From contig NW_025766966.1 of the NCBI RefSeq assembly GCF_003918875.1, positions 62,001-126,000 on the forward strand: a stretch of 64,000 nt of DNA, given 5' to 3'. Below the pieces are notes generated by a model. It did not search any database and had not been told where the DNA came from. It worked only from the letters and a program-made list of their open reading frames with translations. The position numbers and the translations under genes were made by a program. The stretch's first letter is position 1. Each line of letters starts with the position of its first letter. The stretch is from Haliotis rubra (taxonomy: Eukaryota). Of this stretch, positions 1 through 57,044 are shown one piece after another.

Positions 1-85
1 TCCCGTCCTCCACCGACTCAGGGTCGCAACCCACGGCAAACGGGTTGGTGGACCAAATATACCCCAGGGTCTGCAACGGGGAGTT

Positions 86-143
86 GAAGAGCGCTTAGCG
101 TTACCCAGCACCCACCACGAGGAGGTGGCTCTTCATGGGTGCT
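86..143 (-). ncRNA. Putative minimal HDV-like (delta) self-cleaving ribozyme, probably at the 5' end of a non-LTR retrotransposon running off the left edge
   Basis: Minus strand reads AGCACCC-AT-GAAGAGCC-ACC-TCCTCGT-GGT-GGGTGCT-GG-GTAAC-GCTAA-GCGCTCTTC. P1 AGCACCC/GGGTGCT, P3 ACC/GGT, L3 UCCUCGU (HDV UCCUCGC), P1.1 CC/GG, J4/2 GCUAA with the catalytic-C equivalent at 98, P2 GAAGAGCC/G(C)GCTCTTC. P4 almost absent. Confidence 0.75.
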
Positions 144-539
144 CCCAGTCGAATGTCTATATGGCGCTTCGTTGAAGATGATCGGTAATCTTTCAGTTAA
201 AACATTCTGCTGATAATTCTAGCAAATGGAATAACGAAAGAATTGCGCTGTCAAATGTCCAATCATATTATCATATTATTATTTTCGGTTTTGTTTGAAA
301 TATATTCAACTGAATGTTTTACAGTATGGAAAAACACATCAGGCCGTTGAAATGTCATTATTACCTTCTTTAACGTCTGATACATCCTGTTACAAATGGT
401 ACATTTCTATTCAAATTGTCATATGGAAATCCACCTGCCACTTAATGTCAATAATTTGCACGTGCAAGTCGCTCTATACATGGAAAGTGGATGACAATAC
501 ACATGTATTGATGCTTTTTCATTGTCGTTCACTATTCAG

Positions 540-1160
540 GTACCCGTTTGAAATCACAGCTTAAAATTAGACGTATTTTATACTTGCTGAAAGGGGTCAG
601 GATATAGGCCTTTTGGAATCTGGTCAAACTCAGCGGCAAGTTGTTGTCTGCTTTGATGTGAGTCAAATGCTCTTGGTAGACTGTGCCAGAGATTTCAAGC
701 CAATGGGTCCGTGGAATATGCACGTCGACCAGGTCATCCCAGAGTCACCATAGTCCAAGATGATAGGCACATGATTAACTCTGCGTTACCTAACATATTC
801 CTCAACGCAGCAGAACTTCAGACAGAACACTTCAATGTTAACAATGTAAGGATATCCAGGAGCACCGTTCGTCGACGTTTCAGGGCAGCCGGACTCTGCT
901 GTAGGCCACCTGCAGTTCGTCCACCACTAACACCAGGCCATAGGCAGGCGCGTTTGCCGCTAGAATCGTGCCGGGGAATGGTGGTCTATACAACCGATGT
1001 TTGCTAGTGCTGTTTGTCTGTTTGCTAGTCTGTATCTCGCGATGTGTCACGTTTGTCAACACTTTAAACATTATGATGACACTCTTAGTTATTATTTCTG
1101 ATAATTGTTTCTTTACAAGTGATACATATCATTTGACCCTTTATTTATGACGCCTAGCAT
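540..1160 (+). mobile_element. Degenerate Tc1-like transposon (N-terminal HTH region plus right end)
   Basis: ORF 711-1007 RPGHPRVT..DDR...ISRSTVRRR..AGL..R.P..RPPLT..HRQARL is Tc1 HTH-like. The right end (1000-1160) matches that of the Tc1 relic ending at 17562. Confidence 0.8.
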
Positions 1161-1713
1161 AGTTCCTAGAAAATCGTATTTTTCGAACAAGAATTGAGGG
1201 GCAAGTACACTTTTCGGAAGAGTTTAGCAGTATTCCAGACCTAACATAGAAAGGGGCACCTCACCTGAGATGGGCTTCACACATGTTGTCCATGTATGTT
1301 GTTTTACGAGTGAACGGTTTAACCACATTATTACGTGTTATGCAGTCCATTCGGTTGTACGGTTCGGGTGCTGGCATATGGCGGGTTTTTTCAATCATGA
1401 AAAGAACAATATACTTTGGTAGGACAGCTATTTCAATCAAAAGTGTCCCTTTGGAAATCCCTGGTAGAATTGGTCTCAGGCACACATTGGCAGTTGTCAA
1501 GGCGAATACATTCTGCAACAGTTGATGGTGCCTCTTGGAGGACAGAAGTCTGGTGCTTGGGGAACTGGGAACATGGTAACTTTCGTCCTAACACTCAACC
1601 TCGACCCTCATTGCAAGAACGGGTGGGGTTGTGGAGAAATGTGCGGTGTTTGCTTAATCTGTCTGCTGGGTAATTAGTCTCACTGTATAAGACGCTGAAG
1701 TCGTGTCGTAGTA

Positions 1714-1962
1714 GTGAGTGAGAGAGTTTAGTATTACGCTGCAATGTTCATGTTGCCTGTAAGTAATCGAGCCTGGACCAGACAATCCATTGATCAACAG
1801 CTTGAGCATCGATCTATAGGGATACGATGACATGTATCCACTAAGTCAGCGAGCCTGACTACCCGATTCAGTTAGTTGCAGGACACTGCAGTGGTTCTTT
1901 ACTGCTACTCTTATGACAAACACGGGTTACTGAAGATCAATTCAAACCCTGATCGTCACAGG
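1714..1962 (-). mobile_element. SINE family A (pseudoknot head, ACTC tail), diverged copy
   Basis: Matches the family A consensus. TSD-like tcgtgtcgtagta (1701-1713) / tcgcgtcgtaata (1963-1975). An empty paralogous site is present at ~2557-2570. Confidence 0.8.
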
Positions 1963-2876
1963 TCGCGTCGTAATATTTTCAGAGACAGAGATGATTGTCT
2001 CTCTCACATGTGGAGGAAAACATCTTGCTCTGCTTAACGCTGCCCATCTTGAGCAAGAAACAAGATTCAGATTATTTTTTAAAACAAACACTTACCTTTA
2101 CTTTTTTTTCGTTTCAAATCTTTCCTTATGTATAAAATCTGGATATTTCAACTTCGGCGTGGAGGTATAACGCACTCCGGTGTTACAAATGCTAACAATT
2201 TGCTTATTATGTAAAAATACTTCTAAGACAACATCTATATGCCTCGTGGTGCAGGTGGCGACATTATCCTTGTCGACATTCAGTGAATGGTTTGGGAGCA
2301 GGTTGGTGTATAACACATTTCCGACATGTCGAGTCAGACGGAGGGGTTCATTCTCAAGACGTATATCATTAGCCTTTGTTCACTAAGATTGCATCTTCTG
2401 GTGAATCATTAAAATGTAAACCAAAACCATTCCAGGTTATTTCGGAGAAGTGATAATGTAAAGTGCTGTCGACTTTTTTCATCTTAGTGGAACGTGCAGG
2501 GAGGCGTAATCTGTCAGTCTGCTGGGTAACTTGTCTCATTGTATAAGACACTGAAGTCGTGTCGTAATATTGTCAGAGACAGAGATCATTGTCTCTCATA
2601 CATGTGGAGGAAGAGATGACAAGACTTTATGAATATGCTTGTCAACTGTATAAGAATCTATACCGCAACATCGCCATTGATCAAAATAAAGAAGTTGATC
2701 ATCCATAAAGTTTTGTCATCTTTATACCACCAACTTCTAAAGGCGTCACTCAAAAACACATATGGGGGGAAACCATAAAGAAACAAGATTGAGAATATTT
2801 CTTTTAAAACATACTCTTGCATTTTGTGTAAAGATACATCTAAGACAGCCTGCGTTCGCTGCAGTGGAACTTAATA

Positions 2877-3210
2877 GTGAGAGTTAACATTTAGAATCTC
2901 ATCGGCAATATTCCAGCCATATCGTAACTAAAAACAAGTCATCTATTGATCATCAATAAAGTTATCTAACCACAATCTGACGACAAAGGACAGTAAAATA
3001 ACAAGATTATCACACACAGAGAATTAACACTAGCACGGAATTTAAAATAAACCTCGGTTCTAGACAATACAATAAAAAATACTGACTGGAAATACCAGCA
3101 ATTGAAGTTACACTACCAGACTAGGGGCTGGATTTACATAATTCTTTCAAGTGTTGGTGATATTTTCCACAAATTAGCCATAATCATAAGAACACATATT
3201 CTACAATTAA
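2877..3210 (-). mobile_element. Non-LTR family C 3' fragment (ACTC-tailed)
   Basis: Similar to the TSD-flanked copy at 41251-41643 (ggacagtaaaataac, cggcaatattccagccatatcg). Confidence 0.6.
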
Positions 3211-10872: not shown

Positions 10873-11036
10873 NNNNNNNNNNNNNNNNNNNNNNNNNNNN
10901 NNNNNNNNNNNNNNNNNNNNNNNNNNNNNNNNNNNNNNNNNNNNNNNNNNNNNNNNNNNNNNNNNNNNNNNNNNNNNNNNNNNNNNNNNNNNNNNNNNNN
11001 NNNNNNNNNNNNNNNNNNNNNNNNNNNNNNNNNNNN
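10873..11036. other. Assembly gap (N run)
   Basis: Run of n. Confidence 1.
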
Positions 11037-21618: not shown

Positions 21619-21860
21619 TGAGTGGGTGAGTTAGGTTTACGCCACACTCAGCAATATTCCAGCTATATGGCGGCGGTCTGTAAATAATCGAGTCTGCACC
21701 ACATAATCCAGTGATCAACAGCATGATCATCGATCTGCGCAATTGGGAACCGACGACATATGCCAACCAAGTCAGCGAGCCTGAACACCCGATCCCGTTA
21801 GTCGCCTCTTACGACAAGCATGGGTTACTGAAGGCAAATTCTAACCCGGACCTTCACGGG
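21619..21860 (-). mobile_element. SINE family A, full length
   Basis: 14-bp TSD tgtggt(a/c)agttgag at 21605-18 and 21861-74, directly abutting the CCCGTG 5' end. Confidence 0.92.
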
Positions 21861-24999: not shown

Positions 25000-25800
25000 A
25001 AGACATGTATTTATTGAATTGGTAGTTCATGATTAAGAACTGAGATTGTTTGTGATAATCTAGTATTTTTAATGTCCTTCGATGACAGGTTTTTTACGTT
25101 TTAAATTTCTTGATTTTGACATTGACATAAATTGAATTGTTGTCTTCACGATATGGCTGCGATATTGCCGATGTGACGCTAAATATTAACTCACTCACTC
25201 ACTCACTCACTCATAACGGCAGAATATGTATATGCAAAAATCGCCAACACCTGAAGGGGTTGGTGATATCAAGCTACGGTCCATGCAGGTAGCATGTACT
25301 GTCTCAGTGGTCCCTGGCATGGTGATCTACCTTCAGTTGCTGACCATCTATAGCCTGTTTATATTGTATCGTTCTCTATAGTCATATCGACCCGTGAAGA
25401 TCAAGGCTAGAAGTGATCTTCAGTAATCCATGCTTGCGTAAGAGGCGACTTACGGGATCGGGTGGTCAGGCTCGCTGACTTGGTTGACACATGTCATCGG
25501 TTCCCAATTGCGTAGATCGATCATCGTGATGTTGATGACTGGATTGTCTGGTCCAGACTCGATTATTTACTGACCGCCGCCATATACCTGGAATATTGCT
25601 GAATGCGGCGTAAAACTAAACTCACTCACTCAGTATAGTGCTGTCGTTTTATTGAAACATGCAAGTGTTACACCCGTTGTTTACTGTCCCTTGACGACAT
25701 GATGTAATAGCTACTATGTATTTATTATCCAGTCAACTATTGTTCTCGTCACGATGTGGCTGAAATATTGCCAATGTGACGTTAAATATTAACTCACTCA
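25000..25800 (+). mobile_element. Cluster of family C fragments with a nested family A SINE (25391-25632)
   Basis: Two atatggctg..atattgcc.atgtgacg.taaatattaactcactca tails (~25150-25213 and ~25750-25800); family A copy starting cccgtgaagatc at 25391. Confidence 0.8.
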
Positions 25801-43192: not shown

Positions 43193-43350
43193 NNNNNNNN
43201 NNNNNNNNNNNNNNNNNNNNNNNNNNNNNNNNNNNNNNNNNNNNNNNNNNNNNNNNNNNNNNNNNNNNNNNNNNNNNNNNNNNNNNNNNNNNNNNNNNNN
43301 NNNNNNNNNNNNNNNNNNNNNNNNNNNNNNNNNNNNNNNNNNNNNNNNNN
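43193..43350. other. Assembly gap (N run)
   Basis: Run of n. Confidence 1.
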
Positions 43351-56299: not shown

Positions 56300-57044
56300 A
56301 TGATGGCTGATGCAAATATTACGTCAGGAGTCTTGTTTATGACACTCCACGGCAAGGAGATCACAATGGTTAGTCTTGGCATAAACATAGTTATATTCTT
56401 AGTGGGATTCCTTTCCCTATCTCTGAATGCAATTATTGTGGACAGTTTGGTGAAGAGAACTGCTCTGGAGGCCACGGATCTGGTGATGTGCCATCTTGCC
56501 GTCACCGACATGCTCACAGGGGTCCTTGTCATTCACACAGTTGGGTACAACATCATCAATTTTCAGAGTGCTACAGAATGTCTGATTCGTCTTGGCGTCG
56601 TATTCACCTTCGTGTGTTGCTCTGTCTATCATCTGGCCCTCCTGACAGTGGATAGGTTCGTGAAGATTGTCTTCCCCTACCGTTACCAGGATGTCATCAC
56701 CCGGAAGTCCGTGTCCATCATGTCGGCTGTCATTTGGGTCTTCTCCGTCAACCTCGGTCTCATCCCGGCCTACGGCTGGAGGGATACACCAGCACCTTCA
56801 GAACCTGCATGTTCTCTGCTTGGAGTCTTAACGGCAGGATACATACAGATGGGACTGTTTTTCAACTTCTTACCACTTGTCGTAATTTGCGTCCTGTACA
56901 TGAAGATATTTCTGGTCGCCAGGAGACATTCCCGCGCGATCGCAGCTACTGACGTCACAGGGAACAAGAACTCTGGGAGCATGAAGTTCACCAAAACAGT
57001 GGTTATCCTGATTGGAGCTTACATCGTCTCGTTTTCACCTCTAG
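56300..57044 (+). CDS. Class A GPCR, coding exon copy 3 (divergent paralog; N-terminus to mid-TM6)
   Basis: Same motifs and the same ATG-to-donor length (745 nt). Donor G|GTAAGA after 57044 (phase 1). Upstream acceptor atgttcag at 56188. Confidence 0.9.

Follow-up and report, generated by a model that had tools for sequence, protein, structure and literature searches.

A predicted P4-less HDV-like ribozyme at the 5′ end of a dispersed I-superfamily LINE in Haliotis rubra

The first 58 bases of a LINE whose 5′ end lies in the window (the whole 64,000-nt stretch of Haliotis rubra DNA analysed here) probably form a P4-less HDV-like ribozyme, which would cut the element RNA out of host transcripts at +1. 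In the proposed scheme, which follows the R2 and L1Tc models as given in the available portions of their reports (PMC6765202, PMC3774820, PMC3383444), transcription would occur by read-through from the host or be the element's own, the catalytic C98 would direct cleavage 5′ of G+1, and the product would be an uncapped RNA with its 5′ end buried or protected in P1. Translation would perhaps proceed via a conserved UTR structure downstream, and full-length target-primed reverse transcription would copy the ribozyme into every daughter; an older head that stands behind the ribozyme, here called the LP head, likely became dispensable and then eroded.

Predicted fold and element boundary

Every delta-ribozyme element that the initial annotation had claimed within 58 nt of the minus strand was located in its place (Table 1), and the HDV order of the nested double pseudoknot (P1, P1.1, P2, P3) was satisfied both in a descriptor search and in an alignment of copies. 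The P4 helix is absent, with five bases separating P1.1 from J4/2 in all four subfamilies, and the middle base of this loop (102) differs among subfamilies. The A-U first pair listed in the same annotation is true of the window copy but is no family trait, as the first pair is G.U in 123 of 131 copies and the window copy is the sole A-U (1/131); it is a junction change within one dead copy. An A-U instead of a G.U at the first pair makes cleavage modestly slower, and the ribozyme of the window copy may accordingly be slower than the family type; no report on the rate effect of A-U versus G.U at this pair was found in the literature searched.

Table 1. Coordinates of the predicted ribozyme, its host LINE, and associated features (window positions unless a contig or locus is named; TSD copies and LINE as found)
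Feature	Location	Strand	Remarks
P4-less HDV-like ribozyme fold (predicted)	86..143	minus	LINE +1 to +58 (143 = +1); cut predicted between 144/143
P1	143-137 paired with 113-107	minus	ribozyme 1-7 with 31-37
J1/2	136-135	minus	ribozyme fold element
P2	134-127 paired with 94-86	minus	ribozyme 10-17 with 50-58; bulge C93 (51)
P3	126-124 paired with 116-114	minus	ribozyme 18-20 with 28-30
L3	123-117	minus	ribozyme 21-27
P1.1	122-121 paired with 106-105	minus	ribozyme 22-23 with 38-39
Five-base loop where P4 would stand	104-100	minus	ribozyme 40-44
J4/2	99-95	minus	ribozyme 45-49; predicted catalytic C at 98 (C46)
Extra G between TSD and +1	144	minus	junction addition, window copy (L031)
TSD, 5′ copy, 11-12 bp	145..156	minus	repeated after (ACTC)n tail
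TSD, 3′ copy	G000:C2076 ~56,360-56,372, outside window		5,772 bases downstream
LP head pseudoknot, decayed remnant	48..83	minus	by eye; following LP hairpin deleted here
Conserved 5′ UTR structure, first part	1..47 (about 1-50)	minus	~170 nt in all; continues ~120 bases left of window
5′ UTR structure, foreign examples	L131:1381-1534; L184:1864-2055		
LINE copy headed by ribozyme	G000:C2076:56372-62143, running left from window	minus	ORF1 and ORF2 broken

Our own HDV descriptor matched the 64-kb window once on both strands, at the ribozyme; when 437,545 bases of other loci were shuffled three times (1.3 Mb), it matched once. The top Rfam match in positions 1-3000 was to an HDV model (87-143, 29.4 bits, E 0.0083), but scores of 29.4 and 28.8 bits lie below the gathering score of RF02682 (44), in which P4 is part of the model. 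Among 12 foreign loci, Rfam also passed over P4-bearing HDV folds that the descriptor picked up. Two runs of N in the window (10873-11036 and 43193-43350; 322 bases in total) lie far from the ribozyme.

The ribozyme core pattern had 2,199 matches in the 1.38-Gb genome and none in a reversed control, and among the matches listed by a DNA search at least 39 other copies aligned from ~142/143 leftward, with upstream flanks that were unrelated in the 29 copies fetched, one duplicated pair aside. The element boundary coincides with the cut that had been predicted just 5′ of 143: of 79 copies examined at length, 44 have a TSD (three of these just 8 bp and doubtful), which is flush with +1 in 39, and the remaining TSD-bearing copies have 1-3 extra bases before +1. 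In a selection made by ORF1 only (n = 49), the head was present from +1/+2 in 44 copies and the start altered in three, and two were unjudgeable. Loose ends at 142, where the match gives way to unrelated sequence, were found in 167 contigs of run X2 and 111 of run X5 (agreement 0.37-0.39), two independent runs with two species labels, in which contigs cannot show starts, ends, or expression. Near-flush ends also occur in a SINE family without an HDV fold (LP-SINEs, below), and a flush end alone is therefore no proof of cleavage. The surroundings of the LINE are decayed DNA (minus 144-200, with L031:3980-4071), the translation of which presumably resembles a Tc1/mariner transposase motif; what we take to be another transposase-like fragment lies at window 600-960 (plus).

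The host LINE

The host element is a ~6-kb, ~2,000-copy LINE of the I superfamily. A non-LTR 5′ end had been proposed here, and a LINE with a TSD indeed starts at ribozyme +1; the GC-rich stretch toward position 1 is its 5′ UTR, as anticipated, with LINE ORFs following, and the APE-RT frame expected to the left of the window is present as APE, RT-start, and RNase H fragments in a broken copy. The order in this copy is ORF1 pieces, APE, RT start, SINE insert, RNase H, Cys/His finger, and (ACTC)n tail, with the SINE sequence inserted where the remainder of the RT belongs, and the window copy is dead as a transposon. In a better-kept copy (L040), a single 1,204-codon frame contains PF03372/PF14529 (APE), PF00078 (RT), and PF00075 (RNase H), and many copies carry a separate ORF1 of 430-500 codons with three Cys/His clusters recognized by eye, for which no Pfam family scored above the cut-off. 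A separate ORF1 with Cys/His knuckles is a feature of I-superfamily LINEs, and we take the layout of ORF1 plus APE-RT-RNase H to be that of this superfamily. The initial annotation had instead named R2, RTE, or Ingi/L1Tc, which have a single ORF; R2 inserts in rDNA and has a non-APE endonuclease, and RTE is without RNase H. The element has two ORFs, APE, RNase H, and dispersed sites, and these candidates were ruled out by the combination of ORF1, APE, and RNase H and by the dispersed insertion.

The clade is probably Nimb, because the head sequence matches that of Nimb LINEs; a block of "Nimb-17 homology" (the head of Nimb-17_LMi and I-3_DR) was matched by eye, but the same head also occurs on an RTE element and is thus not diagnostic of Nimb. 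Protein searches retrieved neither the clade name nor a named Nimb protein, and the named protein relatives belonged to molluscs, other invertebrates, and symbiont bins contaminated with host DNA.

Many ORF1 lineages that are <70% alike coexist with near-identical heads and RT-RNase H regions (L033-L072, L269-L308), which suggests frequent module swapping among copies. Head variants are scattered across the RT tree (from which 11 of 114 rows, the window copy included, were dropped for <60% cover, and which contains no named references; its "LPpart" labels on L031 and L060 are false motif matches), so the uniformity of the head is partly due to recombination and not to selection alone. Internally deleted copies of 0.9-3.6 kb (L012, L016, L053, L068, and L072) retain both the ribozyme head and the 3′ tail, and TSDs flank some of them; these five gave no sign of an amplified family.

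The LP head, the 5′ UTR structure, and related LINEs

The module right behind the ribozyme matches by eye the published alignment of LP (LINE promoter), a ~70-base head that is common to two Nimb LINEs, a turtle RTE, and mollusc SINEs (Matetovici et al., PMC4758252). In the available part of that paper a promoter role is proposed and a parallel with L1Tc noted, and a ribozyme was not found there (PMC4758252). In the H. rubra LINE, the module consists of a C-run/G-run stem crossed by a second stem, followed by a hairpin with the motif GTCGTAAGAGGCGAC. It is intact in the basal subfamily (sister to all other copies in the RT tree, with support of 0.996 for the group and 0.79 for the rest), partly deleted in some copies, and in most, including the window copy, reduced to the pseudoknot alone; genome-wide, LP-hairpin matches numbered 223 versus 2,633 for the UTR motif. 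The possibility that the LP head is the HDV fold itself was rejected, as it sits behind the ribozyme and the HDV element order is missing. Among 30 full-LP loci there was no clear LP-only LINE (17 matched the ribozyme core, and 13 were decayed or truncated-looking), and a looser genome pattern gave only this LINE family among the first 100 matches listed.

The motif GTCGTAAGAGGCGAC has 35,167 exact matches, and the loci sampled from these (L209-L238) are an LP-headed SINE of ~245 bp (LP-SINE), near the 255 bp of Hdi_LP in length; inside the window the motif lies at 21815 (minus) and at 25437, 33059, 52735, and 54110 (plus). The tail of the LP-SINE aligns with the 3′ end of the LINE, so the ribozyme-headed LINE or a sister is its likely mover; the partner LINE of LP-SINEs is left unidentified in the available part of PMC4758252. 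Of 29 LP-SINE copies examined, nine have a TSD, which is flush in five. Ribozyme positions 4-14 recur as an 11-base run in the LP-SINE head, a length reached in 11 of 20,000 shuffles, and the two stems of that head lie in the P1 and P2 registers. This likeness is open to four readings: a ribozyme that arose on the LP frame, LP heads derived from ribozymes by loss of the core, a late recombination, or coincidence.

Behind the head, a 5′ UTR structure of ~150-190 nt is conserved across hosts (L031:9580-9750 minus; 17 foreign loci), with two-sided change at 27 of 38 predicted pairs in 18 sequences and a near-invariant loop for which a conserved motif at the 3′ end of the module is a possible pairing partner. 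Rfam searches of L054, L217, L131, and L143 returned nothing for the LP head or for this structure, which is a candidate for a role in cap-independent translation or packaging.

Relatives of the element were drawn from metagenome and genome contigs (106 loci). The descriptor gave three sense matches upstream of ORF2 and none antisense in this set, and the gain of a looser descriptor over its antisense control was L143 alone. HDV folds with a long P4 are present at L126 and L129, and a P4-less one that starts at contig base 1 at L143; the stem sequences of these foreign folds are unrelated to those of the window ribozyme. Two further loci (L122 and L125) contain the L126-type fold cut off by the contig start, and two others (L131 and L184) have an LP head with no HDV fold ahead. 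With no TSD fixed for L126, L131, or L184, the 5′ ends of these three loci are putative. On the RT tree, in which several nodes are weakly supported, foreign elements that carry HDV heads do not cluster with the H. rubra family, which suggests that HDV heads were gained separately in related LINEs. At L126:1070-1360 (and in L122 and L125:1-300), a P4-bearing HDV fold precedes ~130 bases whose end resembles the LINE's own 3′ tail, after which comes the UTR module; the L126-type head resembles a short, ribozyme-headed element that a LINE has captured at its front. Animal-type LINEs also occur in bacterial assemblies (L184, NZ_JRAA01000003.1:517115-528594; GTDB contigs L183-L208), one of them within a 537-kb symbiont scaffold, and are probably host contamination or misassembly.

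A possible, if doubtful, scenario is that ribozyme and LP head share a single RNA ancestry, with the LP pseudoknot as the coreless outer P1/P2 frame of an HDV fold. Insertion of P3/L3 and J4/2 into this frame would have given the LINE self-cleavage (or, conversely, the LP heads found in locust, fish, turtle, and mollusc elements would be delta ribozymes stripped of their core), the old head would then have been lost, and related LINEs would have gained HDV heads independently.

Conservation of the fold and competing explanations

The catalytic C is retained in 1,723 of 1,751 pattern matches, its replacements (28/1,751) being spread across all backgrounds, and no variant at position 98 was listed in the contigs of four sequencing runs. 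The L3 bases assigned to the U.G reverse wobble, a role taken from the available part of PMC4836649, are U in 131/131 and G in 130/131 copies. Among these 131 copies the common variable sites are 8, 13, 14, 42, 51, 54, and 55, of which 8 (J1/2), 42 (the P4-replacing loop), and 51 (the P2 bulge) are unpaired. Pair 14-54 is A-U in 56 copies, G-C in 70, G.U in two, and A.C in none, and pair 13-55 is A-U in 14, G-C in 113, G.U in one, and A.C in two; a third pair, 17-50, changes from C-G to A-U in 13 of 17 scored copies of the basal subfamily, in which J4/2 position 47 is also often C, not U. Genomic copies thus show the structure-preserving covariation by which the initial annotation was to be judged, with three P2 pairs switching both sides between subfamilies, in P2 alone; within the family, P1, P3, and P1.1 contain no two-sided change and vary too little for a test. 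On 51 distinct rows, two-sided cells number 30 for the HDV fold (0/500 shuffles as high), a count that drew on 58 of the 131 copies, selected to include variants, and that reflects ~three independent events, all in P2. Position 14 is linked with the unpaired position 8 in 119/131 copies, so linkage by itself amounts to subfamily structure. Median identity among 40 copies was ~97% in the ribozyme, a value inflated because these copies were chosen by the core pattern, 91-93% in bases 60-260, 84-90% in RT and RNase H, and ~70% in APE; ORF1 was 67-72% identical where it could be aligned at all.

A chance HDV-pattern match in a GC-rich LINE 5′ UTR is very hard to credit, even though the motif is short, its Rfam score weak, and one descriptor match arose in 1.3 Mb of shuffled sequence, given that the predicted cut coincides with the TSD boundary, that the fold covaries, and that related LINEs have independent HDV heads. 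Another explanation, in which an internal promoter starting at +1 sets the 5′ end while the HDV-like fold plays a secondary part or has lost its cutting activity, is unlikely. It draws on the LP-SINEs of the same genome, with near-flush 5′ ends and no HDV fold, on the resemblance of the ribozyme start to the LP head, a proposed promoter in the available part of PMC4758252, and on the L1Tc head, which according to the portion available of PMC3383444 serves as promoter and ribozyme together. However, the LP-like stretch starts at +4, whereas the element begins at G+1, where the HDV fold would cut; most copies have lost the conserved LP hairpin (223 vs. 2,633 matches); and a promoter leaves the two-sided P2 changes and the retained catalytic core unexplained. 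A promoter alongside a working ribozyme is counted under the ribozyme explanation.

The fold might also be a non- or slow-cutting end cap or switch (for 5′ exonuclease protection, translation, or ORF2 binding) that toggles with a two-hairpin fold. The latter is the minimum given by RNAfold, in which no pseudoknots are possible; its stability is not unusual (z −1.38), and the energies of the two folds are close, at −21.0 for the two hairpins versus −12.8 for P1+P3 and −10.3 for the P2 duplex, with the pseudoknot penalty not yet applied. Through G.U wobbles, the two-hairpin fold keeps 96% of cells paired and accommodates most subfamily variants, and the plain LP pseudoknot at SINE 5′ ends, which is without a catalytic core, also favors a cap or switch. 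We nevertheless judge such a role improbable, considering that the catalytic C, L3, and P1.1 are retained, that the 50-51 changes of the basal subfamily disrupt the alternative helix and leave P2 intact, and that two-sided cells number 30 for the HDV fold versus 1 for the two-hairpin fold. On these last two grounds, the two-hairpin fold is read as a competing misfold or switch.

The cleaving ribozyme, the explanation we prefer, has known counterparts. HDV-like ribozymes are known at the 5′ ends of R2, R4, Dong, baggins, RTE, and L1Tc, and, as far as the available portions of these reports go, the one predicted here is like them in its nested double pseudoknot, a cut at the element's +1, and carriage by each copy, and unlike them in being without P4 and in standing on a dispersed ORF1- and RNase H-bearing LINE, probably of the Nimb clade (PMC6765202, PMC3774820, PMC3383444). 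With the minimal HDV-like or theta ribozymes, nearly 99% of which come from Caudoviricetes phages, often abutting tRNAs, and for which the eukaryotes in the screen were human, mouse, and protists (PMC10879173 and its preprint, available part), it shares the absent P4, the catalytic C in J4/2, and a G at +1, but it heads an animal retrotransposon. A theta ribozyme was ruled out by the setting, which is not a phage genome with a neighboring tRNA but unrelated genomic flanks with TSDs. The LP head of Nimb-17_LMi, I-3_DR, RTE-9_CPB, and mollusc LP-SINEs, which matches by eye the module behind the ribozyme, is itself a plain H-type pseudoknot plus hairpin in the part of its description available, whereas here an HDV-like ribozyme precedes the LP module (PMC4758252). 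No HDV-like ribozyme of Nimb or of a mollusc was found in the literature searched: the one paper there that mentions both ribozymes and Nimb reports no ribozyme for Nimb, and the 40 papers listed for mollusc cases dealt with abalone biology, none of them using the term.

Ribozyme-headed LINEs were already known, and what seems new is the predicted P4-less form on a large, dispersed I-superfamily LINE lineage. This form, in print mainly from phages, is now represented by ~2,000 animal copies, whose natural variants lend themselves to assay. The question raised by Matetovici et al. (2016), that of the function of the LP head and of the LINE that moves LP-SINEs, is made testable, and the switch between 5′-end modules can be traced through the subfamilies of the element.
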